Shown: piece after piece, positions 32,101 to 51,371 of the stretch
Layout: every line of letters starts with the position of its first letter
Numbering within the stretch: position 1 is the first letter of the stretch
Source: a virus
Length of the DNA: 64,000 bases
Reading direction: 5' to 3' (one strand)
Virus record (IMG/VR): IMGVR_UViG_3300020442_002030
Span: 847 to 64,846 of that record
The notes under the pieces: generated by a model
Told to the model about the DNA's origin: nothing
Database searches by the model: none
The model's input: the letters and a program-made list of their open reading frames with translations, nothing else
Translations under genes and position numbers: made by a program

Positions 32101-33498
32101 GGTAATGGTAAATCTTCATTAACAGATTCGAATGATGGGGTATATATTGGAACTGATGGTATAGCATTAGGGGCAAGTAGTGTATTTAAAGTTACAGATA
32201 GTGGAAACATAACGGCAACAAATGCTAGTATAACAGGTTCTATTAATGCAGGAAATGGTCAAATAGCTGGTTGGAATTTGGATGGTAATAAATTAGTTTC
32301 CAACAATGAATCAATGAGTTTAGATTCAGCAAACGAAAAAATTACGATTACCGATAGATTAACAATACGAACAGGTGGATTATCTTCAACATCAGCAGGT
32401 TCGGTAAGTGTTACATCGCCAGCTCATACATTTAACTCCCAAACATTTAGTTCACCAGCTGCATTTGATACAACAGAAAATGCTGATTCAAATGGTAGTG
32501 GAACAGTATCATTTACTTCAACAGGAACTTATAGTGTAACACTTACAAATCAATTTGATGCTTCAAATACGTTTAGTGTAAGTAATGGATGGAGTGGTAT
32601 GTTCCAATATAAAACTGTATTACAATTTAGAACAGCAGGTAGTGGTGGTGGTTCATTGATAGGTGAGATAATTTTAGCTCAACAACAAGATTTTCCACCT
32701 GCTACTGGTGGTTCATATAATAAAGATTTAGATACATACACTTCTCAGCAATATTTAAATATGACCCAAACAGGCACAATATATCTTTGGGTAGTTGAGA
32801 AGTATTTTTATCAACCTGCTGATACTTCTATTACTATAACAAAAAACTCATATACAAAATCTACAGTAAGTGGAATTTCATTTGCAAAACAAAATACATT
32901 TTCAGAAGTTACTGAGTATGGATTTTTAGCAGCTAGAAGTGCTACAAACTTTGTTAAGTTAACCACATTAGAAAATCAAGTATTACAAGCTGAAGGTGAA
33001 TCGATACTTAATGGAACAGTTAGAGTAGAAGATGATAACCAATATGATTTAGGAGACCCAAGTAATAGATGGGATGATGTATATGCAACCAATGCTACAA
33101 TTCAAACATCTGATAGAAATGATAAAACTCACATTAGTGGTTCTGATTTAGGATTAGATTTTATAAATGATTTAAGACCTGTAAAGTATAAATGGATTAG
33201 TGGAAGTAGATATCATTATGGATTAGTTGCTCAAGAAGTATCAGAATCGCTTCAATCCTCTTCAATACATACTGATGATTTTGCAGGATATATTGAAAAC
33301 GAAATATGGGAAAGTGGTAGTCACGAATGGACAATCGATTCAATAAATGAATACGGATGGGATACTGGAAGTTTTACATATAGTAGACAATCATTAGGAT
33401 TGAGATATTCAGAAATGATTTCACCAATGATTAAAGCAATCCAAGAGTTATCAGCAAAGGTGGTACAACTAGAAAATCAAATAAGCGGTTCTGAGTGA
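29185..33498 (+). CDS. Tail fibre/spike with C-terminal intramolecular chaperone (Peptidase S74)
   Basis: C-terminal TSDRNDKT..LGLDFINDLRPVKYKW..GLVAQEV..LRYSEMISPMIKAIQEL; internal Ala/Ser repeats and duplicated beta modules. Confidence 0.85.
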   Translation: MAVLKKYSPLQNIRNYKVFIEDGDMDSAYFNVTELEKTLTGGKNAFLFEGSPFLRKGSKVRFEALDVEGNTLYIEPGVQSGKTFKDGTSIVMAIHIYDDTPIGIGSLQIAAELETYIDERGIERKVPEEFRGRPNIRWTQTFKINPKLPNKTQVRFFKRPTFSVTEIEKPLLVKTEMTLNKSGSVIGIPEVPDTGSDFSTWTAPSQYRIKLEEGNKFTQSMEENTTLQIPSLGYSSSVLEVVNADEMLVRKPYLINNIVHEFQPVSYSLQFESVEDAVVTGSNVTASYAEIRLENLKTFTGDVARIKIFRKSRNDLGDFQVVQENKLDATELLRDFSVNDRTVINYGKLRRENIVSEEGDVYYTTSSGVEIHNDKLINSLEVKGNHSVESAGTIGEFEIVSGSEYSFKYNARYSGSGESVNTDTLRFLIVTSSNNSGNPTVTSQSIDLLSGSIDRNSAGLGNIQRIQKNFFAETTGKCQIRVEANTAASTGRFLFSRLSLKNAEESSYSPDEYTAIVDIPRKNPTEQFDFRVEFYDINNNFIPIKVEQSVPFTKGNQAIGLEASINVKNSGIADAGDILNVQGGVVQIASTNIQSSTIAGLGDPTNFSTELAAATSSLKIQTTNLQIATASLGADITSSLAAGAVSASNAAQSASLAEDKADTAIVGNQNAVLSGSAAASTAQSNAETFATTAANNATLSGSLSASIAITGNENAVLSGSAFATITGDNSVLSGSAFASDAVTSGSEFAANAALSASASGSVDPSTGLITKAVAPSSDGLYLGASNLGFYESGQWRTYMDDDGQFFLTGSNNNNYLRWNGTTLEIGGSIVLTNGSPGVDLTPLNDFTSSQDSINSNLNSETSSINSSLGNINAATSSYLGTSTQFDFGGNGFTLDPVSINGAGLYLGSDKLGYYNNSEWKTYMDNSGQFFLGGTSGNLTWDGTNLLINGTVTASAGYIGTPTDGFNINSDYIGNGKSSLTDSNDGVYIGTDGIALGASSVFKVTDSGNITATNASITGSINAGNGQIAGWNLDGNKLVSNNESMSLDSANEKITITDRLTIRTGGLSSTSAGSVSVTSPAHTFNSQTFSSPAAFDTTENADSNGSGTVSFTSTGTYSVTLTNQFDASNTFSVSNGWSGMFQYKTVLQFRTAGSGGGSLIGEIILAQQQDFPPATGGSYNKDLDTYTSQQYLNMTQTGTIYLWVVEKYFYQPADTSITITKNSYTKSTVSGISFAKQNTFSEVTEYGFLAARSATNFVKLTTLENQVLQAEGESILNGTVRVEDDNQYDLGDPSNRWDDVYATNATIQTSDRNDKTHISGSDLGLDFINDLRPVKYKWISGSRYHYGLVAQEVSESLQSSSIHTDDFAGYIENEIWESGSHEWTIDSINEYGWDTGSFTYSRQSLGLRYSEMISPMIKAIQELSAKVVQLENQISGSE
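31190..31347 (+). repeat. 26-bp exact direct repeat within the tail-fibre SGS repeat tract
   Basis: AAAATGCAGTATTGAGTGGTTCAGCA at 31190-31215 and 31322-31347 (encodes NAVLSGSA). Confidence 0.85.
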
Positions 33499-34481
33499 AA
33501 TTATTAGTAACAACTGGTTTCGGAAATATCATACAAGGTGGAGCTGATGTATGGACAAATCATTTTATTGATTTAGTACTTCCACAACTTTCAGATGATT
33601 ATTTTATCTTTGTAGATGGTAGAAAACCTGTTGGATTTGAAACATCTTTAACAAATTATCATTTTCATTACGATAATCCTAAAAAATCAGAACAACTTTT
33701 AGAAGATTGTGAAGAAATCCACTTCTTACATGCGAATTATCACAAAAGAGAACATCTTTGGAAACATAAAGATAAATGGGGTAATATATTTGTACATGCA
33801 TATTTACCCGATATGTTAAAGTATGGTGATTCTACAAAACAATTTCAAACTAACATAGATACTAAAGCAGTTGATGATTTGATGAAGTATTGTAAACAAA
33901 GAATTTGGATAGGATTAACAGATTCACAATTATTTACAGATTATCCTGATAATACCATAACAATTCCAAACTTTTATGAATTTAAAGAAGATTTGTTATT
34001 AGAAAAATTATCAGATTCTAAAATTGGATTTACTTCTCGTATTGAATCTCGTAAAAATGTTCATTATTTGGATAATCATAGAGGATTTGTTTTAAGTGGC
34101 AAATACGATTGGAAAAATATAGTAGAAACAAATCAGTATAACTTTAGTGGTATAAAATTTTATCAATGGGACTCTGAGATATTAGATTTATTTATGTGTA
34201 AAGATTGGAGTATCTCACATTCTTGCCACACCAATGAACCTTTTGGATATTCAATCTTTCAAGCCGTTGATTATGGAAAACTTCCGATACTACATTCCGA
34301 TTGGGGAGATGTAGATTACAAATATAGAGCATCATCAAAAGAAGAGTTTGATTCTATGGTAGAAATCATATGTAGAGATTCTTACGCAGAACTATTAGAA
34401 AATTGGATGAGATTATCTGAATGGATGCTTAAATACTCCAATAAATGGAAGTGGAGAGATGAGATAAAAAATCTATTTTAA
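33495..34481 (+). CDS. GT-B (GT4-like) glycosyltransferase
   Basis: GFTSRIESRKN and NEPFGYSIFQAVDYGKLPIL (E-x7-E-like motif); GTG start overlapping the upstream TGA. Confidence 0.7.
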   Translation: MKLLVTTGFGNIIQGGADVWTNHFIDLVLPQLSDDYFIFVDGRKPVGFETSLTNYHFHYDNPKKSEQLLEDCEEIHFLHANYHKREHLWKHKDKWGNIFVHAYLPDMLKYGDSTKQFQTNIDTKAVDDLMKYCKQRIWIGLTDSQLFTDYPDNTITIPNFYEFKEDLLLEKLSDSKIGFTSRIESRKNVHYLDNHRGFVLSGKYDWKNIVETNQYNFSGIKFYQWDSEILDLFMCKDWSISHSCHTNEPFGYSIFQAVDYGKLPILHSDWGDVDYKYRASSKEEFDSMVEIICRDSYAELLENWMRLSEWMLKYSNKWKWRDEIKNLF

Positions 34482-34506
34482 TTTTTTCCGTTTTCTATAT
34501 TTTTAT

Positions 34507-34515
34507 ATATTTATA
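34507..34515 (+). promoter_or_regulatory. ATATTTATA putative late promoter heading the glycan operon
   Basis: Exact motif in gap 34482-34538. Confidence 0.6.
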
Positions 34516-34538: not shown

Positions 34539-35318
34539 ATGTCTTTACTTAATTTAGGTTTAATAGAAAAATACATATCAAACAATCAAGTCAAAAAAAG
34601 GGATACGAATGGTAAACCTTTTACTGATATTGTACCTGTTCCATATAGATGGACACATGGAGCAACTGATTTACATTTAGGTGATGGTATGATTATATAT
34701 TCTACCATACAAATGATGAGAGCAAAGGTATGTGTATGTTTAGGAAGTGGTGGTGGATTTATTCCTCGTATAATGACACAAGCGAGAGTAGATTTGCATG
34801 ACCAAAAAATATTTACAGGTCTAAAACAGATGGAGTGGGGTGATTGTGGTACTACATTCGTAGTTGATGCAGATAACGGAGTAGGAGGGTTTACTGATTG
34901 GACGGATAAACGTTCATTCTTTAGAAAAAACTTCGATTGTAGAGTTATCTTAGATACCACCGAAAACGCATTTTATAACTTCTTTGTTAAGGAAGATATA
35001 AAGATAGATTACCTACACATAGATGCGGGTCATTCGTATGATGATGTTAAAAATGATTTTACTCTTTACTCAAGTATCTTATCGGATTATGGTGTAATTT
35101 CAATCCACGATACAGATGAATCTTTTGAAAAAGAACTCATCGTAACAGAAGATGTAAAAGAAAAAAACCATCATGCTCCATTTGATGGACCTAATAAACT
35201 CATAAAAGAACTAAAAGAAAGTAACGAATGGGAACTTTTCAATTTCTTCAACAACGGAGTGATGAAAGAAAAACCATCTACAACTGGGTTGACACTGATA
35301 CAAAGATGCAGGATTTAA
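34539..35318 (+). CDS. Class I SAM-dependent methyltransferase (Methyltransf_24-like)
   Basis: CVCLGSGGGF; IDYLHIDAGHSYDDVKND; GVISIHD. Confidence 0.8.
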   Translation: MSLLNLGLIEKYISNNQVKKRDTNGKPFTDIVPVPYRWTHGATDLHLGDGMIIYSTIQMMRAKVCVCLGSGGGFIPRIMTQARVDLHDQKIFTGLKQMEWGDCGTTFVVDADNGVGGFTDWTDKRSFFRKNFDCRVILDTTENAFYNFFVKEDIKIDYLHIDAGHSYDDVKNDFTLYSSILSDYGVISIHDTDESFEKELIVTEDVKEKNHHAPFDGPNKLIKELKESNEWELFNFFNNGVMKEKPSTTGLTLIQRCRI

Positions 35319-36166
35319 ACTTAGTAACTGTAGTTGGACATAACATCACTATGTTACCACATATGTTGGAATACTATCAGCAATTTGTGGAGAAAAAAAA
35401 TATCTTTATCGTAGTTTATCGACAAGATGAAAACGATGGGATATTAGAACAAATTGAAAACTTGGGATTGACTCCTTACAAAGTAGTAACCGAACCAAAG
35501 TTTCATTGGGAAAAAGTAACTGAACTTTATAATGAAGTAAAGATGACTAAACCAAACGATTGGTGGATTGTATCGGATGATGATGAAATTCAGATTTATC
35601 CAAAACCAATTGAAGAAATGATTGATGAATGTGAAGTAAAAGGATGGGAGTTTATCACAGGTGGATTCTTGGATAGGATTGGAGAGGATGGGAGTTTTCC
35701 CATCGTAGATAGCGAAACTAATATATGGGAAGTATTTCCATATAGTGGTTTTTTTAGGTATCCACTTAGTGGAGCTTGTCCAAACAAAGTGTGTGTAATG
35801 AAAGGAAAGATTCAAATAACAAACGGACAGCATTATGCACACATTGATGGAAAAGATGTGTGGGGTAAAGAGGGTGTAGAACATCCACTTAGATATCCAC
35901 CAGGTAGAGGTGAAGGATTTATACAAGTTCATCACTTCAAATGGGATTCAACTGTTTTAGAACGATTAAAAGAAGTTTCAGAAACAGAAGAAGATTACAC
36001 TTTTTGGAAAGAATACAAAAAGATGTACAAAGCAATCGAAGTTTTCGATTGGAAAATTGATATTAATAATCCGTTATTCGGTTTAGTTAGAAATATACCG
36101 ATTCAAAATGAACATTGGGATTATCAGTATTGGAATAGATTAACAAAAGGAATATTAAAAATTTAA
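35306..36166 (+). CDS. GT-A (GT2-like) glycosyltransferase
   Basis: WWIVSDDDE DxD motif; VHHFKW. ATG 35306 (MQDLNLVTVVG) is preferred over the tracked start 35228. Confidence 0.7.
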   Translation: MQDLNLVTVVGHNITMLPHMLEYYQQFVEKKNIFIVVYRQDENDGILEQIENLGLTPYKVVTEPKFHWEKVTELYNEVKMTKPNDWWIVSDDDEIQIYPKPIEEMIDECEVKGWEFITGGFLDRIGEDGSFPIVDSETNIWEVFPYSGFFRYPLSGACPNKVCVMKGKIQITNGQHYAHIDGKDVWGKEGVEHPLRYPPGRGEGFIQVHHFKWDSTVLERLKEVSETEEDYTFWKEYKKMYKAIEVFDWKIDINNPLFGLVRNIPIQNEHWDYQYWNRLTKGILKI

Positions 36167-36170
36167 AATT

Positions 36171-36395
36171 ATGGCAAAGAAAGCAGCAAAAGTAGAAGAA
36201 GCAAGTATCTCAGCTAATGGTGGAGGTTTTGACCCTATTTTAGAGGAAAGAAAAGTAAAAGCATTAGAAAAGATAGCTAACTCAGTAGATGCACTTACTT
36301 TATGGTTTGAAGAAATCGATAAAGAAGAATGGGGACCAAGAATGGAATGGTATTTATCGTTATGGAAAGATAAGTACATAGGTAAGGATGAATAA
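36171..36395 (+). CDS. Small hypothetical protein
   Basis: 74-aa ORF that fills the space between coupled genes. Confidence 0.6.
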   Translation: MAKKAAKVEEASISANGGGFDPILEERKVKALEKIANSVDALTLWFEEIDKEEWGPRMEWYLSLWKDKYIGKDE

Positions 36396-37812
36396 ATTAG
36401 GTATCATAGTACCTTACAGAAATCGATTCGAGCATCTTAAAAAATTCAAAAAATCTATTATAGATTATTTGGATTCAAATTCTTATGAAAATTATGTTGT
36501 AATAATTGTAGAGCAAGATGATGCAAGATTATTCAATCGTGGAATGCTTTTAAATATTGGATTTGAAGAAGCTGAAAAACAGGGTTGTGATTATGTAGTT
36601 TTTCACGATGTAGATATGTTACCGATTTATGTAAACTATTCATATCATAGTAAACCTCTTCATTTAGCTACTAATTTTGTATTGGATGATGAAGAAAAAG
36701 AAAGAACAATCTTTGATGAATATTTTGGCGGAGTAACAATGTTTCCTGTTGATACATTTAAAAAAATAGATGGTTACTCTAACAAATACTGGGGATGGGG
36801 TTATGAAGATGATGATTTACGATTTAGATGTGAAGAAAAAAATATACCTTTAAAAATTAAGAAAATTAAAAACTATAAACCGATTGGTAAATCTTTAAAG
36901 TTAAATGGAATAAACGCCTATGTAAAGGTAAAAAATACTATAGATTTTAGAAGTAGTTTTTCTATATTTATTTCTTTTTATCCAGACAAATTATATTTAA
37001 ATCACAAAAAGAAATCAGATGAATTTACGGCATTTAGTATTCCTGGTTATGATTTAGCATTAGGTTACACATCGTTTTCAAGATATAATTTTTGCTTCTT
37101 TGATTCACAACTAAAACCATATTATGTTAATTCAACTATTAAAAAGAATCATAAAACAAATATGATGATAGTATTTAATTCAGTTGATAAAAAAGTAAAA
37201 ATTTATCAAGATGGTGAACTGATTGGTGAAACAGAAGAATATAGAAAGTTATTTCCATATCACAAAGAAGAACATTATTATTTAGGAGTTGGTAATCCAA
37301 TCAGAGAAGAAATACCTAATTTTTTTAAAGGATATATAAATTCATTTGCACAATGGAACACACCTTTATCAGAAGATGAGGTAAAACATTATTCATCATT
37401 AGAAAGTGAGTTATTAAATCATAATTACAAAAATTATAATTCTTTGGAATATCTAAATGTATATTATGATGCAAATCATATAAAAGATTATAAACTGATA
37501 GATATTTCAGAAAATGGAAATGAAGGTGAAATTATTAATTGTGAAATAGTAGATTTAGATATACCAAAATATACAAATGTAAAAATACCATATAGAAGAA
37601 AGGGTTTATTTAAATCATTAAAACATGATGAAAATGGATTCGATGGGCAGCAGTGGAAAGATAAATCTACAAGATATAATCAACTAAGATTTTTAAATGA
37701 AGTATCTAATCACCCATCTTTAATAAACAATGATGGATTATCTACATTAAAATATCACACTTATGGTAAAAGTGAAGAAAATAATATAATACATATGAAT
37801 GTTGGAATTTAA
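36388..37812 (+). CDS. GT7 (beta-1,4-galactosyltransferase-like) with inserted LamG domain
   Basis: IIVPYRNR, FNRGMLLNIG, FHDVDMLP, YFGGV, GYSNKYWGWGYEDDD, then a ~230-aa ConA/LamG-like insert, then KSLKH...DGLSTLKY. Confidence 0.85.
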   Translation: MNKLGIIVPYRNRFEHLKKFKKSIIDYLDSNSYENYVVIIVEQDDARLFNRGMLLNIGFEEAEKQGCDYVVFHDVDMLPIYVNYSYHSKPLHLATNFVLDDEEKERTIFDEYFGGVTMFPVDTFKKIDGYSNKYWGWGYEDDDLRFRCEEKNIPLKIKKIKNYKPIGKSLKLNGINAYVKVKNTIDFRSSFSIFISFYPDKLYLNHKKKSDEFTAFSIPGYDLALGYTSFSRYNFCFFDSQLKPYYVNSTIKKNHKTNMMIVFNSVDKKVKIYQDGELIGETEEYRKLFPYHKEEHYYLGVGNPIREEIPNFFKGYINSFAQWNTPLSEDEVKHYSSLESELLNHNYKNYNSLEYLNVYYDANHIKDYKLIDISENGNEGEIINCEIVDLDIPKYTNVKIPYRRKGLFKSLKHDENGFDGQQWKDKSTRYNQLRFLNEVSNHPSLINNDGLSTLKYHTYGKSEENNIIHMNVGI

Positions 37813-37821
37813 AATTAACTT

Positions 37822-38298
37822 ATGAAAGAACAAAAACAAATAGTAGGATTTACTGCAGGAAATTTTGATTTAATTCATCCGGGTTACGTTTATACGTTTG
37901 AAGCAGCTAAACAACATTGTGATAAATTCATAGTGTTTTTACATAGAGACCCATCTGAACATAGAAAATCAAAATACAAACCTGTTATTCCTATACACGA
38001 AAGATATCGTACATTGATGGCTATAAGATACATCGATGAAGTTTATGTATATCAAACAGAAGAAGAACTCAGAGGATTAATAGAGTTTTTTAAACCCGAT
38101 ATAAGAATCTTAGGTGAAGATTATATTGGTAAATCATTTACAGGTGATGACTTACCACCAAAGGTTGTATATACAACTCGAGCACATGGTTGGTCAACAA
38201 CTAAGATGAAGGATATGATTGCTATGCAAACAATCAAACAAAATCCTGAAATAAAAGAAGCAGCAGAGTTTTTTGAAAGAAAAATGGAAATGGATTAA
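37822..38298 (+). CDS. Cytidylyltransferase, TagD/RfaE-II-like (HIGH family)
   Basis: AGNFDLIHPGY; ERYRTLMAIRYIDEV; KPDIRILGEDY; WSTT. Confidence 0.85.
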   Translation: MKEQKQIVGFTAGNFDLIHPGYVYTFEAAKQHCDKFIVFLHRDPSEHRKSKYKPVIPIHERYRTLMAIRYIDEVYVYQTEEELRGLIEFFKPDIRILGEDYIGKSFTGDDLPPKVVYTTRAHGWSTTKMKDMIAMQTIKQNPEIKEAAEFFERKMEMD

Positions 38299-39740
38299 TG
38301 AAGTTAGGAGTTTGTGTACCATATAGAAACAGAGAAGCTCATTTAAAAGAGTTTGTACCAAAAGTTGGAGCATATTTAGAATCCAAAGGTATAGATTATT
38401 GTATGTACTTTGCTCATCAAGTAGATGATAAGTTATTTAACAGAGGAGCAACGAAAAATGTAGCAGCTAAACATGCCTTTGAGGATGGATGTGATTACAT
38501 TGTATGGCATGATATAGATATGATACCAGAAGAGGGAACTGATTACTCTTTTCCTGAAAAAACTCCGATTCATATAGCAACAAATATATCTCAAATGAAT
38601 TACGAACTAAAATATCAAGAATATTTTGGTGGAGCAGTACTTTTTAACAAAGAACAAGTTGAAAGAACCAATGGATACTCAAATGATTATTGGGATTGGG
38701 GTATGGAGGATGATGATTTGTTTTGGAGATGTTATTTGGAAGGATATGCTAATGTAAGAGAAATAGAAATTGGTATAGAAAACTTTTTAAGGTTTAATGG
38801 TAGTACTTCAAAGGTAACAATACCAGTCGATAGGGGTATAGCACATCTAACATCCAAATCACATACAGTTTCAGTATTGGTAAAAGCAAATCAGCAAGAA
38901 GAAAAAGTTCCTATATGGTTGGTTGGTGATTGGGATAGAAGATTTTGTGAATATCCAATAATTAGAAGAGCTGGTTACGATTGGGGATTGAGTTATAACA
39001 ATAGTAGAGCATATACATCACTACTATGGAATCACAAAAAAGAAGCTCTATATCAATGGATGAAAAGATACGAAAATTATTGGAGTTGGATAACCCTATC
39101 AGTAGATGTTGAAAATAATAAAATACATTTTTACTTAAATGGAAATGAATCAGATGCAAGACATGGACATGGAACTCATTCACCACTTAGTTTTGATGGT
39201 AAACTAAAAAGATATGGTTCTGTACCATTTACATTAGGACACACAACTTCAGTTGGAGAAAGAGATGCTAGTAGGTTCTTTAGAGGTGATATAGCAAAAG
39301 TAATGTTATGGGATAGAAAGTTAGAAGCTGATGAAATCAAACAATTAACAAATAATATTCCATCAGATGGATTAAAACTCCACTACGAATTTAAAAATGG
39401 TGAAGCAAAAGATATTAGTGGTAATGATTATGATGGTGAAGTGAATACAATAACTACTGGAACGGAATTAATTAAATTATCACAACCACCAATCCCACAT
39501 CGTAGAGCTGGTAGAATGTTTTGTTTACCACACAAAGATGAGGGATTAATATCAGATGATAAAGGACAAGATAGGTGGGCTAAGGGAGAAACTACCGCAA
39601 GAAATGAAAGAAGATACGTTTTAGAAATGCAGCAAGGTAAGTGGGATTATAAATCTGATGGTATTAAACAATTAAAATATGAATTGGTTAGTATAGAGGA
39701 AATAAACCCGAATGCAAAAATGATAAATGTAAAGTTTTAA
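38298..39740 (+). CDS. GT7 glycosyltransferase with inserted LamG domain, paralog 2
   Basis: VPYRNRE, FNRGATKN, WHDIDMIP, YFGGA, GYSNDYWDWGMEDDD, LamG insert (FFRGDIAKVMLWD..KDISGND), then FCLPH...SDGIKQLKY. Confidence 0.85.
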   Translation: MKLGVCVPYRNREAHLKEFVPKVGAYLESKGIDYCMYFAHQVDDKLFNRGATKNVAAKHAFEDGCDYIVWHDIDMIPEEGTDYSFPEKTPIHIATNISQMNYELKYQEYFGGAVLFNKEQVERTNGYSNDYWDWGMEDDDLFWRCYLEGYANVREIEIGIENFLRFNGSTSKVTIPVDRGIAHLTSKSHTVSVLVKANQQEEKVPIWLVGDWDRRFCEYPIIRRAGYDWGLSYNNSRAYTSLLWNHKKEALYQWMKRYENYWSWITLSVDVENNKIHFYLNGNESDARHGHGTHSPLSFDGKLKRYGSVPFTLGHTTSVGERDASRFFRGDIAKVMLWDRKLEADEIKQLTNNIPSDGLKLHYEFKNGEAKDISGNDYDGEVNTITTGTELIKLSQPPIPHRRAGRMFCLPHKDEGLISDDKGQDRWAKGETTARNERRYVLEMQQGKWDYKSDGIKQLKYELVSIEEINPNAKMINVKF

Positions 39741-41915: not shown

Positions 41916-42307
41916 AAAATGTATTATTTGATACTGTTTGTCCACATGGATATGTTGTGAATGGTTACAATAAAAACAAACTAATCAACGAATTTAAAAA
42001 ACACCAAAACAAAGTACATATTGATTTGGGTAATATGGATTATGTGTATCAGAATGAAAAAGGATACAATTGTTTTTTATTGTATGGTGATTGGAGACAA
42101 ATAGATAATAAAAAAGAATATCTATACATTATTGATTTAGATAACCCAAATGTAAAATTAAATAATATAAGTGATGCAATAATACGATTTCAAATAAATC
42201 ACTTGGTAAAATTTAGGATAATTAATAAATCCAAAAGAAAATTAACAGAAAAAGAACAATTTACACTTCGTAAAATACAAAATAATATTGAAGAGTATGC
42301 AATATGA
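41912..42307 (+). CDS. Hypothetical protein, possibly an N-terminal fragment of the GT10-like family
   Basis: 131 aa; MKNVLFDTVCPHGYVVNG resembles MKHYQVFDTYYNGCELPNG (49039). Confidence 0.45.
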   Translation: MKNVLFDTVCPHGYVVNGYNKNKLINEFKKHQNKVHIDLGNMDYVYQNEKGYNCFLLYGDWRQIDNKKEYLYIIDLDNPNVKLNNISDAIIRFQINHLVKFRIINKSKRKLTEKEQFTLRKIQNNIEEYAI

Positions 42308-43866: not shown

Positions 43867-44491
43867 TTTAGATTATCACGAAGATAGATGGGTTGATGGT
43901 AACTGGTCAGCTCAAGACTTGATAGATTTTGAAGATGATATTATAAAACATTGGGAAAATGGAGAAATCAGAGGACCAATACACCTATCAAATGGTAATG
44001 AAAAACAACTAATAAAAATATTTGAAAAAGTGGGAGTAGATGATTGGGTATTCTCAACTTGGAGGTCTCACTACCACGCTTTGTTACATGGAGTAGAACC
44101 ATCTGTATTAAAACAGAAGATATTAGATGGTAAATCAATTACAATAGTAGATAAAAATTCAAAATTTTACTCATCAGCTATTGTGACTGGTACTTTACCG
44201 ATTGCACTTGGGGTTGCTAAATCAATTAAGTACAATGGTGGTAATGATAAGGTTTGGGTTTTCTTAGGAGATATGGCTTTTGAGAGTGGAATCTTCTATG
44301 AAGTTCACAAATATGCAAGAAATTATGATTTACCACTTCATTTTGTGGTAGAAGATAATGGTGTATCAACAAACACACCAACATTAGATACATGGAGTGG
44401 TATTCAGAGAGAAATACCAGAAGATGTAATTTATTATAAGTATGAATCAAAGTATCCGCATTATGGTACTGGTAAATGGGTAGTATTTTAA
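43850..44491 (+). CDS. TPP-dependent enzyme, E1-alpha-like subunit (short)
   Basis: GPIHLSNGNE, STWRSHYHAL, and a TPP motif GD-x28-N (GDMAFESG..VVEDN) with PDH E1-alpha spacing; 213 aa. Confidence 0.82.
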   Translation: MEKILNLDYHEDRWVDGNWSAQDLIDFEDDIIKHWENGEIRGPIHLSNGNEKQLIKIFEKVGVDDWVFSTWRSHYHALLHGVEPSVLKQKILDGKSITIVDKNSKFYSSAIVTGTLPIALGVAKSIKYNGGNDKVWVFLGDMAFESGIFYEVHKYARNYDLPLHFVVEDNGVSTNTPTLDTWSGIQREIPEDVIYYKYESKYPHYGTGKWVVF

Positions 44492-45444
44492 TGACAACAA
44501 AAGGGAGAATATTAGTTACAGGTTGTAGTGGTTTAGTTGGAACTCATTTAGTTCACAAACTATTAGATTATGGATACTCAGTTGTAGGTGTTGATTTAAA
44601 ATATTCAAAACAACTACCAGATGATGATAAATTTATATTTCAAAATGTAGATTTAAGAGATTCAGATGAAGTTAATGTATTATTTGACCATTATGAGTTT
44701 CATGGAGTCATAAATTCGTTTGGAATCAAAGGTTCACCTGTTAGAGCAAAAGAAAGACCTATTGATTTCTTAGAACCATCTATAAAAGTAAACACAAACA
44801 TTATTGATAACTCTGTAAAGTATAATTGTTGGTTAGTATTTATGAGTTCGGTTGGTGTTTACGAACCATCTGAAGTATTTGTAGAAGATACTGTTTGGAA
44901 AACACTTCCATCACCAAATGATTGGTTTCCATCTTGGAGTAAAAGAATACCTGAACTTTATTTAGAAGCTTATAAAGTACAAGAAGGTTACAATAGATAT
45001 ACAATCGTAAGACCAGCAAATATTTTTGGTGAATACGATAACTTTGGTGAAGGTGCAACTGTAATCGGAGCAACTTGTAGAAAGGTTTACGAATCAGATG
45101 GTGAAATTGAAGCATGGGGAGATGGAACACCAACGAGAGATTTCATATACGCTGGAGATGTTGCAGATGGTTGTATTAAATGTTACGAAGATAAGTTACA
45201 CATAACAACTAACTTAGGTAGTGGTGAAGAAATATCAATCAAAAGAATGATTGAAACAGTTTCTAAAGTTAGTGAGAAAGAAATAAAAATAAATTGGGAT
45301 ACTTCAAAACCAAATGGTGATATGAGAAGAAGAATGAGTACTAAAATACAAAAGGAATATAATCTATTACCAAAATTAGGATTTGAAGAGGGAATACGAA
45401 GAACATATAAGCATTATGAAAACATTCGATATAGTCATAGGTAA
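44491..45444 (+). CDS. GDP-L-fucose-synthase-like epimerase/reductase
   Basis: TGCSGLVG; RPANIFGEYDNF; WGDGTPTRDFIY; KPNGDMRR. ATG 44491 overlaps the upstream TAA. Confidence 0.8.
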   Translation: MTTKGRILVTGCSGLVGTHLVHKLLDYGYSVVGVDLKYSKQLPDDDKFIFQNVDLRDSDEVNVLFDHYEFHGVINSFGIKGSPVRAKERPIDFLEPSIKVNTNIIDNSVKYNCWLVFMSSVGVYEPSEVFVEDTVWKTLPSPNDWFPSWSKRIPELYLEAYKVQEGYNRYTIVRPANIFGEYDNFGEGATVIGATCRKVYESDGEIEAWGDGTPTRDFIYAGDVADGCIKCYEDKLHITTNLGSGEEISIKRMIETVSKVSEKEIKINWDTSKPNGDMRRRMSTKIQKEYNLLPKLGFEEGIRRTYKHYENIRYSHR

Positions 45445-46186
45445 TGGGTGTTCATTTACACAAGGAGGTGGATTAAATAATTATGAAATTCACAAATTCC
45501 TTACAGGAGTAGATGAAAAAGATATGACCAAATTAGATGCTTTTATGTTTAAAAATTCATATCCAGCTTTTTTAGGTAAATTACTAAATTGTAAATGGTA
45601 TAATAACTCTTTAAGTTGTGCATCAAACGATTTAATAATTCAAAGAGGAATGGATATAGTAAAACAATTTAGAAATAAAAAAATATTGATTATAAACCAA
45701 TTATCAATACCAGCTAGGTTGGGTGTAAGAAAGGGAAACAAATATATAAGTTTTAATAATACAGAAGGACAATTAGTTTATGATGTATCAAATGGAAATT
45801 TAAAAAACCCTAAATATAGAGACCATTCAAATTATTCAAAAAATGAGATAGATGATTTTTATAAAAAATATCTGTTAGATGTCTATGATGTATCAGCTCA
45901 TTGGAAAGGAATCCGATATATGATGGAACTATATAATGGATGGTGTGAAAAAAATAATGTTTTAAATTACTGGTTGTGTTATACTGATTACGAAGAAGTT
46001 CGTAATATAGATAGAATGATAAAACTACAACCAGAATCGGAACATACATATAAACAATCAATATGTGCTTGGTCTGATGAAAAAAGATATCAATTAAGAC
46101 ATATAAAAAATATTCCTGAGGATGATTCTCATTTATCAATCGAAGGACATAAAGAATTAGCAAATATTATATACAATACAATATGA
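45416..46186 (+). CDS. SGNH-fold protein, paralog 3
   Basis: NGCSFTQG; CASND; DDSHLSIEGH. ATG 45416 is preferred. Confidence 0.65.
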   Translation: MKTFDIVIGNGCSFTQGGGLNNYEIHKFLTGVDEKDMTKLDAFMFKNSYPAFLGKLLNCKWYNNSLSCASNDLIIQRGMDIVKQFRNKKILIINQLSIPARLGVRKGNKYISFNNTEGQLVYDVSNGNLKNPKYRDHSNYSKNEIDDFYKKYLLDVYDVSAHWKGIRYMMELYNGWCEKNNVLNYWLCYTDYEEVRNIDRMIKLQPESEHTYKQSICAWSDEKRYQLRHIKNIPEDDSHLSIEGHKELANIIYNTI

Positions 46187-47166
46187 AAAAGGAAGATAAA
46201 ATTTTAGTTACTGGAGCGGCGGGATTTATAGGTTCTCGTTTAATCAAAATGTTATACGAAAATGGTTACAAGAATCTACGGACAACATCATATAGTAGAA
46301 CTCTTAGAGAGTTGTATGATGGAGTGGAATTCATAAAGGGAAACTTACAAGATAGAACCTTTTGCGAGAGAGTTTCAAAAGATGTAGATGTGGTATTCCA
46401 TTGTGCAGCTAATACAAGCAACGCACTGGACACGAAGGTAAATCCCCTTCTCCACGTAACTCCTAATGTAGAGATGAATGTAAACCTTATGGAACAGAGT
46501 TGGAGAAACAAAGTTCGTAAGTTTATGTTTATTTCTTCAAATACAACTTATCCAGATGTAGGTGATGAGTATTGTACAGAAGATATGAATGTACAAACAC
46601 CAAACATCTATCCTGTATATAAAGCAGTAGGTTGGATGAAACGATATGGAGAAACACTTTGTGATTTCTTTTCAAATCAAATACACAATCCGATGCAGTG
46701 TATAATCATCAGACCTTCAAATGCATTCGGTCCGAATGATAAATACGATTTTGAAAAGTGTCACGTTACACCTGCTAATATTAGAAAAGTAGCAGATAAT
46801 TTGAATCCAATTCCACTATGGGGTGATGGTACTGAAGTAAGAGATGTAATTCACGTTGATGATATGGTAAGTGGTTTTATGAAAGTAGCTGAAGAAGTTG
46901 ATACTTATGATATCTACAATGTATGTTATGGTGAGGGGCATACTGTTATGGAAGTATTAGAACTTATCAAAGAATTAGAGGGGAACGACAATCCAATCGA
47001 ATTCGTAAACAACAAAGCCCCTATGATTCCTAAAAGATTATTATCAAATGAGAAACTGAGAAAGTTGGGATGGAAACCTAAATACGATTTAAGAAGTGGA
47101 TTAAAAGATGCACTTGAGTGGTACAAAGAACACCGAGATGAATATGACCCAAATTCAAAACCATAA
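46183..47166 (+). CDS. GDP-L-fucose-synthase-like epimerase/reductase, paralog 2
   Basis: TGAAGFIGS; RPSNAFGPNDKYD..CHVTPA; WGDGTEVRDVIHVDD. Confidence 0.8.
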   Translation: MKKEDKILVTGAAGFIGSRLIKMLYENGYKNLRTTSYSRTLRELYDGVEFIKGNLQDRTFCERVSKDVDVVFHCAANTSNALDTKVNPLLHVTPNVEMNVNLMEQSWRNKVRKFMFISSNTTYPDVGDEYCTEDMNVQTPNIYPVYKAVGWMKRYGETLCDFFSNQIHNPMQCIIIRPSNAFGPNDKYDFEKCHVTPANIRKVADNLNPIPLWGDGTEVRDVIHVDDMVSGFMKVAEEVDTYDIYNVCYGEGHTVMEVLELIKELEGNDNPIEFVNNKAPMIPKRLLSNEKLRKLGWKPKYDLRSGLKDALEWYKEHRDEYDPNSKP

Positions 47167-47169
47167 GTT

Positions 47170-47718
47170 ATGAGCAAACCAAAATTTACACCATATGTAG
47201 ATGCACTTACAGAAGCAATGAAACTTTGTATGGATAACCCATCTACAATTTTTATAGGACAACAAATTGTTTATTATGGAAACCCAATGAGTAAAACAAT
47301 TGAGGGATTGCCAAAAGAAAGAATGATTGAAACACCCGTTATGGAAGAAACACAAATGGGTATGAGTATGGGATTGGCTATGGCAGGTCATCAAGTGGTT
47401 ACCTTTTATCCAAGATGGGATTTCTTAATTCTTGCATGTAATCAATTGGTAAATCATTTGGATAAATTAGAGGCAATGTCTGATGGTGAATGGAAACCAA
47501 ATGTGATTGTAAGAGTTGGTAAAGGTTCAGATAAACCACTGGATCCTGGTCATCAACATAAAGCAGATTACACCGAACCATTTAAACAAATATTAACTAA
47601 TGCAACTGTGAACGAATTAAAAAATCCAAATGATATTTTACCTGCTTATAAAAAAGCACTAAGTGAAGGTGGAATACATATTTTAGTTGAATATCCTGAG
47701 TTGTATTATGCAGAATAA
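47170..47718 (+). CDS. TPP-dependent enzyme, E1-beta-like pyrimidine-binding domain only
   Basis: ETPVMEETQMGMSMGLAMAG; NQLVNH; PGHQH; 182 aa, no C-terminal transketolase domain. Confidence 0.8.
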   Translation: MSKPKFTPYVDALTEAMKLCMDNPSTIFIGQQIVYYGNPMSKTIEGLPKERMIETPVMEETQMGMSMGLAMAGHQVVTFYPRWDFLILACNQLVNHLDKLEAMSDGEWKPNVIVRVGKGSDKPLDPGHQHKADYTEPFKQILTNATVNELKNPNDILPAYKKALSEGGIHILVEYPELYYAE

Positions 47719-49042
47719 ATATTTTAGTAAATTTTTAGTAACTTACGATTTTTTATTAGATGGTGATGTACAACCAAATGCTACAGATTTTTCTGATGAT
47801 AGAAAAGTTTGGCAAGAAGTTTTACATGGGAGTATATCTTCACTAAATTATATACCAACTTATTTAACGGATTTAGATGAGTATAAAAATTATAAATTAT
47901 TATATTTCATAAATCCATACTCATCTTTTGATAAAGGATTTGGTGACTTCAATAAAGATTTTTTGTTAGGTTCTATACCAAACCCAACCTTAGATAAATT
48001 AATAAGTGATGATAGATTCTACATAGTTATTTACTATCCAAATGAAGGGTGGGTTGATTACCAAAGCTTAAAACATATTCATTCTTGGTTTAAAAATGAA
48101 GGAATTGATTTAAATAGATTGATTCTAATTAATTCAAATTTTAAAATAAAAGAATGGTATTCTGAATTTGTAGATAAAGTAAGAATGAAATCCAGAATAA
48201 ATGTTGCTCCACATCATTGGGCACTGGATGATGTACCAACCGAATATATTAGTGCAGTAGGTGATGAGAATCAATCGATTAATATGGAATATAAAATAGA
48301 AAATAAAAAATATGATTTTAATTTTCTAAACAGAGCTAATAGAAAACATAGATTTCTTATGATATTAAATTTATACAAAGAAAATTTGGTAAAAAATAAT
48401 TTAGTTTCATATGACTTAAACTTTGATGATAGTGGAAATGATGAAGAAGAAATTTATGAAAAAAGAAGATGTGATATACAGGACTTTCACAATTATTATG
48501 ATGATGATTCAGAATATGAATATATGCTCTCATTGTACAATGAGTTATATGAAACGTTACCAAAAAAAGTTGTAGATTTTGAAGATAAGAAAAGTATTTT
48601 CGGATTACAAATGGAAACTGACATTCCGTACAAAGATTCTATGTTTACCATAGTTGGAGAATCATACTTTACAGAAAATCAAAACATAGGTTATTTATCA
48701 GAAAAGGTATTTAAACCAATAGCACATCATCACCCTTTTATAATAATTGGTGTTCCTGGTTTGTTAAAATATTTAAGAGAGTTAGGATTTAAAACATTTG
48801 AACCATATATAAATGAATCATACGATTTAGAATATGATTATATTAAAAGGTTTTTTTTAATTTTGGATGAAATAAAAAGATTATGTAATTTATCAGATGC
48901 CGAAAAGATAGAATGGATGAATGGAGTTTTACCAATTATAGAACATAATTATGAAAACCTAAAAAAAATAGAAAAAGAAAATCAAAACATAGATGTTATT
49001 GATAAGATAGCAAATGTAGTTTTTAAAAAGAATGTATCGTGA
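47708..49042 (+). CDS. GT10-like glycosyltransferase-family protein, paralog 3
   Basis: FLNRANRKHR; DSMFTIVGES..GYLSEKVFKPIAHHHPFIIIG..GFKTFEPYINESYD. ATG 47708 is preferred. Confidence 0.55.
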   Translation: MQNKYFSKFLVTYDFLLDGDVQPNATDFSDDRKVWQEVLHGSISSLNYIPTYLTDLDEYKNYKLLYFINPYSSFDKGFGDFNKDFLLGSIPNPTLDKLISDDRFYIVIYYPNEGWVDYQSLKHIHSWFKNEGIDLNRLILINSNFKIKEWYSEFVDKVRMKSRINVAPHHWALDDVPTEYISAVGDENQSINMEYKIENKKYDFNFLNRANRKHRFLMILNLYKENLVKNNLVSYDLNFDDSGNDEEEIYEKRRCDIQDFHNYYDDDSEYEYMLSLYNELYETLPKKVVDFEDKKSIFGLQMETDIPYKDSMFTIVGESYFTENQNIGYLSEKVFKPIAHHHPFIIIGVPGLLKYLRELGFKTFEPYINESYDLEYDYIKRFFLILDEIKRLCNLSDAEKIEWMNGVLPIIEHNYENLKKIEKENQNIDVIDKIANVVFKKNVS

Positions 49043-50475
49043 AACACTATCAAGTATTTGACACTTATTACAATGGATGTGAACTTCCAAATGGCACTGA
49101 TTTTGGAAAGTTAAATGGGCATTATCTTGAGCATAGAGATATGTGTATTAGAAATGAAGATTGGGGTGATGCGTATGATATTAATTCTTGGTATATTAAA
49201 GAAACGGGAAGAGTATTTCCTGTTTCATTACATGAGGATGAACGATTACAACACATTTTAGATTTAAAAAATATACCAATATGTGAAGTAGATAATGTAG
49301 AGGATGGTGTTTTTATATATCAATTAAATATGATGGGAGGGGAAGGATTATCTTTTCCTGATGATATTAATGAAAAATCAATATTACATTTTATTTCTGA
49401 AAAAGCATTGGAGTATATAAAAAATGGAAAATTTAAATTTGTAATAAATTATTTTGTTGAAGGTGTTTTTGAATATCATCATTTTAATAATCTACATAAA
49501 CATTTAGAAGAATTAGAAATACCATCTGAAAAAGTATATTTTATTTTCGGAGGTTATAATACAGATAATTGGTATGAGGCTTTTTGTAAAAGATACAATA
49601 TTAAAAATAAAATAAATATTGTTGAATTAAGTTGGGTTCGATTGCACAAATTTGAAGAATTTTTTCATATGGCTAGAGATGTGAATAAAAACAAATTTTT
49701 GAACAATGAATATGTTGTAGAAAAAAAGAAGTATGATTTTTTATGTTACAATAGAAGATTGAGATTACATAGACAATTATTTTTAGCATACTTAAAAAGA
49801 TATAATTTATTGGATAATAATTTGGTAGGTTATGATTATACATTTTCAGAAAATAAACATTTAGTAAATAGTTTTGATAGTTTTAAACATCACGATATTT
49901 GGCCATATGCTAGATTTTTAAAAAATGAGTTTAATTATTTATGGAATGAAAATCCAAAACAAATTGTTGATGTAGAAGATGTTAGCAACATTATAGGGGG
50001 AACTATTCAATCGGAAAGAAAAGAACCATACCAAAATACAATGTTTTCGGTTGTTACTGAAACATCTTTACGAAGTACCCAATATTATTTATCAGAAAAG
50101 GTATTTAAACCAATAGGACAAAAACACCCATTTGTTGTTATTGGAAGTCATTTAACTTTACAAGAATTAAAACGATGGGGATTCAAAACATTTGAACCAT
50201 ATATAAATGAATCATATGACAATGAACCAAATCACTTTAGAAGATTAGAAATGGTTTTACAAGAAACAAAAAGGTTATGCAGTTTATCAGATGAAGAAAA
50301 AATACAATTCCAAAAAAACGTTTTACCCATTATTAAATTTAATTGGAATCATATGATTGATTTATATGATAGTAATTACGAATGGTTAGAAGAAAAGATG
50401 AAAGAATTAGGTTATGAATTTGAACATAAAGAATTTATTTCAAAACATCCAGTTAGAGATATAAAGATTATTTAA
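49039..50475 (+). CDS. GT10-like glycosyltransferase-family protein, paralog 4
   Basis: CYNRRLRLHR; NTMFSVVTET..YLSEKVFKPIGQKHPFVVIG..GFKTFEPYINESYD; GTG start. Confidence 0.55.
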   Translation: MKHYQVFDTYYNGCELPNGTDFGKLNGHYLEHRDMCIRNEDWGDAYDINSWYIKETGRVFPVSLHEDERLQHILDLKNIPICEVDNVEDGVFIYQLNMMGGEGLSFPDDINEKSILHFISEKALEYIKNGKFKFVINYFVEGVFEYHHFNNLHKHLEELEIPSEKVYFIFGGYNTDNWYEAFCKRYNIKNKINIVELSWVRLHKFEEFFHMARDVNKNKFLNNEYVVEKKKYDFLCYNRRLRLHRQLFLAYLKRYNLLDNNLVGYDYTFSENKHLVNSFDSFKHHDIWPYARFLKNEFNYLWNENPKQIVDVEDVSNIIGGTIQSERKEPYQNTMFSVVTETSLRSTQYYLSEKVFKPIGQKHPFVVIGSHLTLQELKRWGFKTFEPYINESYDNEPNHFRRLEMVLQETKRLCSLSDEEKIQFQKNVLPIIKFNWNHMIDLYDSNYEWLEEKMKELGYEFEHKEFISKHPVRDIKII

Positions 50476-50479
50476 ATAT

Positions 50480-51271
50480 ATGGAATTAGAAAATGAAAAA
50501 ACAATATATTTTGTAGGATGTAGTTACACATGGGGAGCTGGTTTAGAGTTTGAATATTATAATGCACATAAAGGTTGGAGTATTGATAAAATAAATAAAG
50601 AAAATGATATGTCCGTAAATAGATTAGAAAATGGAACATATCATGCAGCAGAATATAGAAGAAAAAATAGATTTGGTAATTTAGTAGCTAAACACTTTAA
50701 TGTAAATCACGAAGTTTTAAATGTTGGAAATGGTGGTAATAATGGATACACAATACATTTAATACAATCATCAACAATTAGTGTTGCAAAAATTCTTATT
50801 GTTCAGTTGAGTTTTTATGGTAGAAGTTGGACATTTCAAAATCAAAAAAAATTTAATACAGAAAAGTACATAAATAGTGGTAACACTTATATTACAGATA
50901 ATTTTTCCAAAGAAGATTTACTAAACGAGTGCCATACTCAAATATGGAATATTTACAAAGAAGCTTATTTCGAAAGAAAACAAAAAAATAAAGACCATCC
51001 TCAAATTTATTTCATAGCTTGGCATAAAGAATTTGGAGAAGTTTTGAAAAATAAATTTTCAAATCATTTTATTCCAATACATATAGATGGGATAGATTAC
51101 AATTCATTTGAAGATACATCTTTAGATTTTAATAATCCCAATATAAAACATAAATATAATATGAGATTATGTGATATTTTAGATGGTTGTCCTGATACCC
51201 ATTTAAGTTCTATAGGACATAAAATAGTTGCGGATTCAATTATAAAAAAAATAAAAAATGAATATATTTAA
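50480..51271 (+). CDS. SGNH-fold protein, paralog 4
   Basis: VGCSYTWG; NGGNN; PDTHLSSIGH. Confidence 0.65.
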   Translation: MELENEKTIYFVGCSYTWGAGLEFEYYNAHKGWSIDKINKENDMSVNRLENGTYHAAEYRRKNRFGNLVAKHFNVNHEVLNVGNGGNNGYTIHLIQSSTISVAKILIVQLSFYGRSWTFQNQKKFNTEKYINSGNTYITDNFSKEDLLNECHTQIWNIYKEAYFERKQKNKDHPQIYFIAWHKEFGEVLKNKFSNHFIPIHIDGIDYNSFEDTSLDFNNPNIKHKYNMRLCDILDGCPDTHLSSIGHKIVADSIIKKIKNEYI

Positions 51272-51371
51272 AAAGATACTAACTTGGTACAAAGATTGGA
51301 AGTTGGAAAGAAAGTATAAAAAAAGAATAAAGGAGCTCAAAAAGAGAGACCCGTTTATTTACAAAAAATAA
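51258..51371 (+). CDS. Small basic protein, 37 aa (not in the ORF track)
   Basis: Hand-translated MNIFKKILTWYKDWKLERKYKKRIKELKKRDPFIYKK*; overlaps the upstream stop by 14 nt. Confidence 0.6.
   Translation: MNIFKKILTWYKDWKLERKYKKRIKELKKRDPFIYKK

Follow-up and report, generated by a model that had tools for sequence, protein, structure and literature searches.

The stretch of DNA analysed here, which we call the window, covers 64,000 nucleotides (positions 847 to 64,846) of the IMG/VR virus record IMGVR_UViG_3300020442_002030. This is nearly the entire 64,851-base record, whose CheckV completeness is about 35%. Every gene of the window is on the + strand. Directly behind the gene for a distal tail fibre comes a long series of packed genes for glycan synthesis, which a first-pass annotation had read as a candidate self-contained virion glycosylation system. 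The region is a genuine phage-encoded glycan-biosynthesis operon, with genes for donor synthesis, transfer and tailoring. It consists of a conserved eight-gene core, which recurs among hundreds of uncultured phages, and a hypervariable tailoring part.

According to the listing of open reading frames (ORFs), 19 of them follow one another on the + strand from 34539 to 51271, and every junction is an overlap or a gap of at most 13 nt, the widest lying at 39740/39754. The tight packing first reported for about 20 genes was therefore found again, with a different end: the final gene stops at 51271 and not at 51371, and the 146-nt spacer after it contains the next copy of the motif described below. 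For four genes the true starts are likely to be slightly later ATGs (35306, 42297, 45416 and 47708), with which the coupling is still tight. A further glycosyltransferase gene precedes the series, and its start codon, the GTG at 33495, overlaps the stop of the fibre gene as GTGA, as had been noted. No excess of sigma-70-like promoters or terminators was found inside the operon.

A promoter-like motif, ATATTTATA, heads the operon at 34507..34515, 23 nt upstream of the ATG at 34539. It occurs 11 times in the window, always on the + strand; 5.8 occurrences are expected on both strands and 11 were reached in 2 of 100 shuffles, a count mildly above chance. The non-random signal is the placement of the sites rather than their number. 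Ten of the eleven lie in the scarce intergenic spacers, approximately 20-40 nt upstream of a start codon, and sites precede baseplate genes, the fibre (29173), the operon, the 1109-aa gene that follows it (51391) and genes of the head module. The claim that the operon is headed by the same motif as the structural genes is thus borne out, and the motif also stands upstream of the methyltransferase gene in the closest relatives (loci L003, L006 and L009-L012). At 18417-18640, a 222-nt apparent gap has ATATTTATA at 18429, then a Shine-Dalgarno-like AGAGGA and a small ORF under the listing threshold. The reverse complement of the motif, TATAAATAT, includes the T4 late-promoter consensus TATAAATA; the coding strand reads TATTTATA at the 11 sites.

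The gene coupled to the fibre (33495..34481) encodes a 328-aa glycosyltransferase (GT) of the GT-B fold. Its language-model (Atlas) features have a similarity of 0.97 to GT1/GT4 clusters, in agreement with the GT4-like label it had been given, and equally to clusters of T4 AGT. It carries the motif EPFGYSIF..A.D.GK.P, with 39 invariant columns among 25 homologues. No Pfam match was found, AGT included, and a profile search of PDB sequences yielded nothing meaningful. Next come a class I S-adenosylmethionine (SAM) methyltransferase (34539..35318), confirmed by Methyltransf_24 at 38.3 bits (cut-off 26.3), and a GT-A enzyme resembling family GT2 (35228..36166, likely true start ATG 35306). The DDD motif of the latter supports the GT2-like name, but the Pfam GT2_4 match is weak, its 22 bits falling under the cut-off.

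Two core genes, at 36388..37812 (copy a) and 38298..39740 (copy b), are assigned by Pfam and by their DxD and WGxEDDD motifs to glycosyltransferase family 7, the family of the beta-1,4-galactosyltransferases. Both proteins match GT7N, GT7C and Laminin_G_3, with GT7 scores of 57-66 bits against cut-offs of 23-27, and their motifs are intact (DVD and EDDD in copy a, DID and EDDD in copy b), so that the two GT7-LamG transferases of the first-pass annotation are confirmed. The LamG/ConA-like lectin insert sits before the C-terminal GT7 segment. A single-sequence search of PDB sequences with copy b found beta4GalT1/7 at E 1e-26, and a profile aligned the catalytic N-terminal part with residues 65-218 of beta4GalT1 (E 7.6e-47). 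Beyond the insert, a weak second alignment covers residues 239-281, the DGLxxLxY element. The phage enzymes keep the DxD, WGxEDDD and C-terminal DGLxxLxY elements of eukaryotic beta4GalT1 and beta4GalT7. Unlike these, they are soluble, have no membrane anchor and carry the lectin-like insert of about 200 aa, which in profile searches of PDB sequences matched the carbohydrate-binding CBM40 domains of the sialidases NanB and NanC, as well as pentraxins.

The anchor gene of the cassette (39754..41187) encodes a radical SAM enzyme of the N-terminal-twitch type, and here the earlier assignment was confirmed by a score of 351.8 bits to NF033640 (cut-off 170). Among 33 sequences, C34, C53, C95 and C98 are invariant, together with C149, C153 and C156 of the CxxxCxxC motif. 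The structure was predicted with a mean local confidence (pLDDT) of 91.6. Its chemistry is not assignable, because the fold matches (SkfB, CteB, SuiB, anSME, BlsE, AprD4 and viperin) are generic, with template modelling (TM) scores of 0.3-0.5. Translationally coupled to it is the gene of a free-standing LamG/ConA-like protein of 245 aa (41178..41915; Atlas similarity 0.98 to Laminin_G_3), for which a profile search of PDB sequences gave nothing meaningful. A complex of this protein with the radical SAM enzyme is predicted, with an interface score (ipSAE) of 0.72, against 0.00 for the best control, and the predicted interface involves the conserved termini of the LamG protein. A value of 0.72 is reached by 58 of 80 solved complexes and by 2 of 110 mismatched pairs, a calibration that is rough for the custom alignments used here. 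Counting the two GT7 inserts and this predicted partner, three core enzymes would thus have a lectin-like module, either fused or partnered.

The remaining core gene (36171..36395) encodes s74, a 74-aa helical, acidic protein. At a 50% identity level, its family forms 139 clusters in a set of 1.84 billion representative proteins, and almost all of its members are small. In the alignment a helical core with invariant L32, E33, W45, W54, R57 and Y61 is flanked by variable, charged tails, and no Cys, Ser or Thr is conserved. It could be that the product of the locus is centred on s74 itself, as an acceptor or primer modified by the radical SAM enzyme, or that it is a free compound, a glycoside or an oligosaccharide, that plays some part in infection. 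s74 is among the most conserved core genes and always lies between the transferases. Peptide maturases (SkfB, CteB, SuiB and anSME) are among the nearest folds of the radical SAM enzyme, alongside sugar-nucleoside enzymes (BlsE, AprD4 and viperin), and tandem radical SAM arrays, a pattern known from natural-product loci, occur in Bdellovibrionota. However, these fold matches are weak as well as generic, the conserved part of s74 offers no Cys, Ser or Thr, no protease, exporter or recognition-element domain was found, and lectin-like modules on three enzymes suggest a polymeric glycan as acceptor. A product of this kind is, in our judgement, quite improbable. A related idea, that s74 resembles the ribosomally synthesized and post-translationally modified peptides, is unlikely since no modifiable residue is conserved.

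In IMG/VR, 574 relatives of the radical SAM gene were found, the best 80 of them being 60-87% identical to it. These 80 loci and the window (81 loci in all) were surveyed by mapping the window proteins and clustering 1,557 ORFs. The synteny comparison that had been proposed as a check of the locus revealed a strictly syntenic core in the best 80 of the 574 relatives: the GT-B gene, where present, then methyltransferase, GT2-like gene, s74, two GT7-LamG genes, radical SAM gene and free LamG gene. Among the 81 loci, the GT-B gene was found in 43, the methyltransferase in 65 (median identity 58% by tblastn), the GT2-like gene in 70, GT7-LamG enzymes in 76 (two, occasionally three copies), and the radical SAM gene in all 81, with the free LamG gene directly 3' of it in 72. 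Clustering placed s74 in 58 loci, and tblastn found it in 70 of the 80 relatives at a median identity of 67%. A large fibre protein, or a fragment of one, with a Peptidase_S74 chaperone is regularly present upstream of the cassette in the best 80 loci. In L068 (10040-17558) and L069, five tandem radical SAM paralogues follow the core and replace the free LamG gene.

The position of the cassette is also conserved. Three complete relatives (G001-G003, CheckV 100%) have genomes of 287, 238 and 202 kb, and a fourth, G004, is a 176-kb fragment (51%). In all four, 16-23 kb separate the cassette from the portal gene downstream of it, and the portal identities to the window are 77, 59, 60 and 43%, respectively. 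G001 is collinear with the whole window, from the baseplate through the prohead protease. It lacks two groups of glycan genes which the window has upstream of the operon, and these are therefore taken as accessory insertions. The first, at 20702..23639, encodes a 360-aa protein, a third SGNH-like protein (21781) and a 366-aa protein, which cluster with genes of the variable part elsewhere. The second, at 27446..29157 just upstream of the fibre, encodes a short-chain dehydrogenase/reductase (SDR) of the nucleotide-sugar epimerase/dehydratase type (start 27446) and a short protein resembling UDP-glucose dehydrogenase (UGD; 28324-29157). This short UGD-like form (255-277 aa) lacks the start of the NAD domain and the entire C-terminal UDP-binding domain, and it recurs in 10 loci. 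The locus had been taken as one pathway. The glycan operon is real, but it divides into a conserved core and a variable part, and glycan genes also lie outside the coordinates first given.

Downstream of the core, gene content differs from locus to locus. It includes SGNH-like genes, short UGD-like genes and many unnamed families, along with an SDR/RmlC/E1 module in about 31-37 of the 80 related loci. The accessory gene at 37822..38298, the cytidylyltransferase of the first-pass annotation, encodes a small nucleotidyltransferase of the RfaE domain II/TagD type (CTP_transf_like, 56 bits). HPGY replaces the HxGH motif of the family in this protein, and the Tyr is kept in all 10 phage copies (window, L003, L006, L007, L010-L013, L071 and L072). 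It is thus present in just 10 of the 81 loci, so that host sugar pools must feed the pathway, and the term self-contained has to be given up. A 131-aa protein without assigned function (41912..42307) is rare, being found in 3 loci.

The nucleotide-sugar module itself (42288..47718) was assigned by Pfam and NCBIfam. The three SDR reductases named earlier are all extended SDRs of the Epimerase family (starts 42288, 44476 and 46183). The split thiamine diphosphate (ThDP) enzyme is likewise confirmed, with a 213-aa E1-alpha-like subunit carrying the pyrophosphate (PP) domain (start 43850; E1_dh, 53 bits) and a 182-aa E1-beta-like subunit carrying the pyrimidine (Pyr) domain (start 47170; Transket_pyr 26 bits, PDH E1 beta 48 bits). 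The protein called RmlC (start 43261) scores 122 bits to dTDP_sugar_isom (cut-off 27), but 111.5 bits to TIGR01221, under the equivalog cut-off of 155.75. By these matches it is an RmlC-like sugar epimerase of unassigned nucleotide specificity, rather than an RmlC equivalog. E1-type enzymes occur in pathways of branched-sugar antibiotics, and by analogy the product of the module is probably a 6-deoxy sugar with a two-carbon branch. The E1 pathway is not identifiable, because the E1-alpha-like subunit has 4604 metagenomic homologues, some from Tara, and these thousands of proteins carry automatic names only. A literature search on E1-type branched-sugar enzymes found nothing relevant.

The module encloses an SGNH-like gene (start 45383), and a second one, a putative esterase or acyltransferase with GCS...DTHL motifs, is the final gene of the operon (50480..51271). 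G22, S24, N82 and H250 are invariant in this family (consensus GCSFT / GxSND / HPSxxGH). For the two SGNH proteins of the first-pass annotation, the motifs therefore agree with the name, but profile searches of PDB sequences gave weak SGNH matches (E 0.02-0.07) and Pfam gave none. Between the module and this last gene, two paralogous glycosyltransferases of 451 and 478 aa (starts 47687 and 49039, within 47687..50475) have a predicted GT-B fold (model pLDDT 78.8), and their family is present in 63 of the 81 loci. They had been called GT10-like. An Atlas similarity of 0.79 to GT10 clusters and a GT10-like EK..KPI motif are present, but neither protein matches Pfam, Glyco_transf_10 included, a profile search of PDB sequences found nothing, and the best 50 fold matches all belong to GT-B families other than GT10. 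Membership of the GT10 fucosyltransferases is thus not established, and the assignment that stands is the GT-B fold of a glycosyltransferase. Their nearest solved folds are T4 BGT, SdgB, GtfA and OtsA, with BGT on top for the 478-aa protein.

T4 AGT and BGT glycosylate modified DNA bases and so evade restriction. DNA hypermodification, which had been listed as an alternative, would mean that the transferases of the locus add an unusually elaborate glycan to such bases. The resemblance of the 33495 enzyme to AGT clusters, as close as to GT4, and the BGT match of the 478-aa enzyme are in line with it, and viral transferases can make multi-sugar DNA glycans (Pyle et al. 2024, as cited in PMC12619734). 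These likenesses are, however, generic to the GT-B fold (TM 0.3-0.4 overall, 0.29-0.35 for BGT), and the locus is grouped with structural genes and headed by their motif, away from replication genes. The known routes of DNA glycosylation need a hydroxymethylase of the ThyA family to make hydroxymethyl pyrimidines (dCMP or dUMP). Such a gene (PF00303) is missing in two of the three complete relatives, G002 and G003, and present in G001. We know of no precedent for GT7, lectin domains or SGNH enzymes in DNA modification. The alternative is weakened, and we consider it very improbable.

Variation within the locus was then compared by the BLAST bit-score ratio (pairwise bit score over self score), as medians among loci. 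For catalytic parts, the ratio was 0.67 for the radical SAM enzyme, 0.73 for GT7b and 0.57 for GT7a; it was 0.41 for the GT7b insert, 0.23 for the GT7a insert, 0.08 for the free LamG protein and 0.00 for the fibre. The LamG modules thus diverge much faster than the catalytic parts. In the comparison with L003, the closest relative, 90% nucleotide identity begins exactly at 33496, the base after the last sense codon of the fibre, and it is broken at the GT7a insert, at the free LamG gene and at some tailoring genes. These breaks are module swaps by recombination. The fibre (29185..33498; 1437 aa, 22% Ser+Thr, C-terminal Peptidase_S74 intramolecular chaperone, preceded by ATATTTATA at 29173) keeps 43% identity over its N-terminal 560 aa in G001, and beyond this part it is unrelated even in L003. 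As the upstream neighbour of the cassette, it is a candidate acceptor of the glycan.

The phage from which the window derives is an uncultured marine T4-like myovirus of the 'Far-T4' type. PHROG and Pfam scans identified baseplate wedge proteins, a fused SbcC/SbcD-like nuclease, the Peptidase_S74 fibre, a large terminase, a gp20-type portal and a gp21-type prohead protease. Portal identity is 49% with Microcystis phage Mel-JY01, 47% with Flavobacterium phage immuto and 34% with Rhodothermus phage RM378, values which place the source phage among distant T4-like myoviruses. DNA near-identical to the window is contained in marine metagenomes from several studies, and one window protein has an identical copy on a 214,610-base contig.

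The cassette is widespread in uncultured phages and absent from cultured ones in GenBank. A megablast of the full locus against GenBank phages gave no match, and GT7-LamG had none in any of them. By tblastn, the radical SAM enzyme matched only Ralstonia jumbo phage RsoM2USA (38% identity), where an SDR is present nearby and the other cassette genes are not. The 33495 GT-B matched one uncultured 484-kb phage only: in LR756508.1 the homologue (128876-129853, 33% identity) lies about 17 kb upstream of the portal, in a layout like that of the window, but neither a radical SAM nor a GT7 gene was detected in that phage. In Mel-JY01 and immuto, different genes occupy the position of the cassette. Cellular homologues of the radical SAM enzyme (38-48% identity, L091-L167) are mostly from Bdellovibrionota (Bdellovibrionales, Bacteriovoracaceae and Halobacteriovorax), often in tandem arrays of up to eight paralogues and without GT7, methyltransferase, GT2 or s74, a context that offers no hint of function. 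Three contigs with the cassette, L089, L102 and also L090 (68-69% radical SAM identity), are binned in metagenome-assembled genomes of Pelagibacter/Pelagibacterales. Similar low G+C or co-abundance is the likely cause, and the binning is a weak host hint or an artefact. Going by the nearest isolates and this binning, candidate hosts are Flavobacteriia or SAR11. Our literature search found no description of the cassette, of NF033640 or of GT7-LamG in phages.

What does the operon glycosylate? Its enzyme families bear out the proposed pathway of donor synthesis, transfer and tailoring, and no membrane or export component was found. All operon proteins are soluble, the top 19-residue Kyte-Doolittle hydropathy being at most 1.51 in each; the hydropathy threshold was exceeded by 33 of the 1,557 ORFs, mostly Rossmann-fold enzymes. 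The locus has no initiating phosphoglycosyltransferase, flippase or transporter, in a search that did not include Wzy, and the complete relatives G001-G003 have neither a priming phosphoglycosyltransferase (PF02397, PF00953) nor a Wzx flippase (PF01943). The phage alone can therefore not run a lipid-linked export pathway. The operon is placed among the structural genes, and the promoter-like motif ahead of it also precedes baseplate, fibre and head genes. Chlorovirus capsid glycans and the capsid and tail-tube glycans of mycobacteriophages are made by soluble virus-encoded transferases.

These observations also bear on remodelling of the host envelope, the other alternative named at first. Here, the soluble transferases would alter lipid-linked precursors of lipopolysaccharide, capsule or glycoproteins that host flippases then export, and the altered receptor would exclude other phages or spare the progeny from being trapped on debris. 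Many O-antigen transferases are without a membrane segment. The content of the locus is O-antigen-like, with SDRs, RmlC, UGD, transferases and acyl-modifying enzymes; as in O-antigen clusters, nucleotide-sugar genes occur together with several transferases and tailoring enzymes. The locus also adjoins a host-recognition gene and shares its hypervariability, and cassettes of GT and radical SAM genes beside the tail fibres of pelagimyophages have been published as O-chain modification (PMC7029224). On the other side, the missing priming transferase and flippase, in the locus as in complete relatives (Wzy polymerase was not searched for), weaken the proposal. The motif is common with morphogenesis genes and not with early ones, which is late for a change of the outer surface before lysis. 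A strict eight-gene core despite unrelated fibres suits a phage-internal acceptor better than diverse host glycans. We regard remodelling of the host as unlikely, though it has to be taken seriously.

Virion glycosylation is the best reading of the locus, with an acceptor supplied by the phage, most likely a virion protein, and we put its probability at roughly one half. Several points weigh against it. Soluble peripheral transferases also serve lipid-linked O-antigen intermediates of the host, so the absence of membrane segments is not decisive. The virion acceptor is putative, and the glycan is deduced from genes. The closest cultured relatives, Mel-JY01 and immuto, are without the cassette, which is therefore not needed to build such virions. 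Similarity between fibres does not track similarity between LamG modules, and pairs of loci with related fibres have unrelated free LamG proteins. A partial Mantel test of fibre and LamG gave weak correlations, but the catalytic parts gave such correlations too, and a small number of close pairs accounted for them; covariation of this kind neither supports nor excludes the fibre as acceptor. The label 'late' comes from motif sharing alone, and the motif differs from the T4 late consensus. In marine metatranscriptome libraries from three studies, short contigs match parts of the operon at 95-99% identity; they indicate presence, are compatible with natural transcription, give no timing and may include DNA carry-over.

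If virions are the target, the core enzymes would work in the cytoplasm late in infection and assemble an inner oligosaccharide that is conserved. The chain would be begun by the GT2 and GT-B enzymes and lengthened by the two GT7 enzymes, whose LamG domains would hold them on the growing glycan. Modification of the glycan would fall to the methyltransferase and to the radical SAM enzyme in complex with its LamG protein, and the variable enzymes would add sugars specific to the lineage (here probably 6-deoxy and C-branched) as well as O-acyl groups. The acceptor would most likely be a co-produced virion protein, either fibre, capsid or decoration protein, and each phage lineage would obtain its own glycan coat. 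A fuller version of this proposal, which we advance tentatively and at less than even odds, is that a family of marine and freshwater T4-like phages of about 175-290 kb carries a self-made, O-antigen-like virion glycan. The eight-gene cassette, with its lectin-guided GT7 enzymes and a radical SAM-LamG heterodimer acting on a polymer-bound sugar, would make the conserved core, and a hypervariable outer part, recombined together with the fibre, would define phage 'serotypes'.

A parallel for such an architecture exists outside the tailed phages. Chlorovirus PBCV-1 uses its own cytoplasmic transferases and a methyltransferase (A064R, A111/114R and A075L) to build a conserved core glycan with a strain-specific outer decoration, which matches the arrangement of core and variable genes found here. 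Chloroviruses are, however, giant viruses of eukaryotes with other enzyme families and an N-linked acceptor, Vp54, and they are not known to have a radical SAM or GT7-LamG enzyme. The virion glycosylation cassettes of mycobacteriophages, of the Che8/cluster F type (Freeman et al. 2023, as cited in PMC12619734), resemble the locus in having phage-encoded soluble glycosyltransferases beside structural genes; they act in the cytoplasm on late-made proteins, as is proposed here. In these phages virion glycosylation is proven, whereas here it is read from genes, and no sequence relation was found. They use two or three transferases and host sugar donors, against about 20 genes here, so the locus is indeed more elaborate than the few-transferase cassettes; radical SAM enzyme, lectin modules, nucleotide-sugar module, and acyl and methyl tailoring are all additional.

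Glycan genes and radical SAM cassettes beside variable fibres, with RfaE, UGD and deoxysugar genes, are also found in T4-like cyanophages and pelagimyophages (PMC7029224). Those clusters are variable, rich in GT8, without a conserved core, and have been read as host O-chain modification (PMC7029224), while the present core is strictly syntenic across a whole phage family. Genomes of cultured pelagiphages and cyanophages from the GenBank phage collection gave no homologue of the radical SAM or GT7-LamG enzymes. The 'moraphages' described in 2025, aquatic T4-related phages of 200-307 kb with predicted Bacteroidota hosts, have four core orthogroups of putative glycosyltransferases whose role was left open (PMC12619734). 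Genome size, habitat and structural gene set are comparable, and they may belong to the same lineage as the cassette phages, in a comparison made by description only; that paper describes no cassette, radical SAM enzyme or LamG modules (PMC12619734).

Two further genes flank the region. The operon had been placed between tail-fibre and head genes. The S74 fibre is indeed upstream, but the gene that immediately follows encodes the 1109-aa protein (51391-54747, with its own ATATTTATA motif), and terminase, portal and prohead protease come after it. This protein has an N-terminal NMNAT/cytidylyltransferase-like domain followed by about 900 aa of unfamiliar sequence. Mel-JY01 (639 aa), immuto (907 aa, where it is annotated 'NadR'), G001 and L011/L012 likewise have the gene upstream of the terminase. 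It belongs to the core of the lineage and not to the head genes. Upstream of the operon, a 1044-aa ORF (23629-26763) joins an SbcD-like nuclease (residues 4-347) to an SbcC-like ATPase (302-1043), that is, T4 gp47 and gp46 fused in one protein, with 65% identity in G001.

To our knowledge, virus-made glycans on the particles of tailed phages have been described only in a few mycobacteriophages, with two or three transferases. The locus is best regarded as one example of a phage cassette that is conserved and had not been described, and for which the virion reading is plausible; a defined, testable eight-gene core replaces one long idiosyncratic operon. Three of its elements have no characterised counterpart: GT7 enzymes into which a lectin domain is inserted, a radical SAM enzyme predicted to partner with a lectin-like protein, and the minimal, split ThDP enzyme of E1 type that belongs to a sugar pathway. 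At least 574 relatives of the cassette exist in IMG/VR, and its position in complete genomes of 202-287 kb is fixed. If the virions are decorated, glycan coats would be widespread among abundant ocean phages and would diversify, with a bearing on adsorption, decay, grazing, aggregation and host defence.

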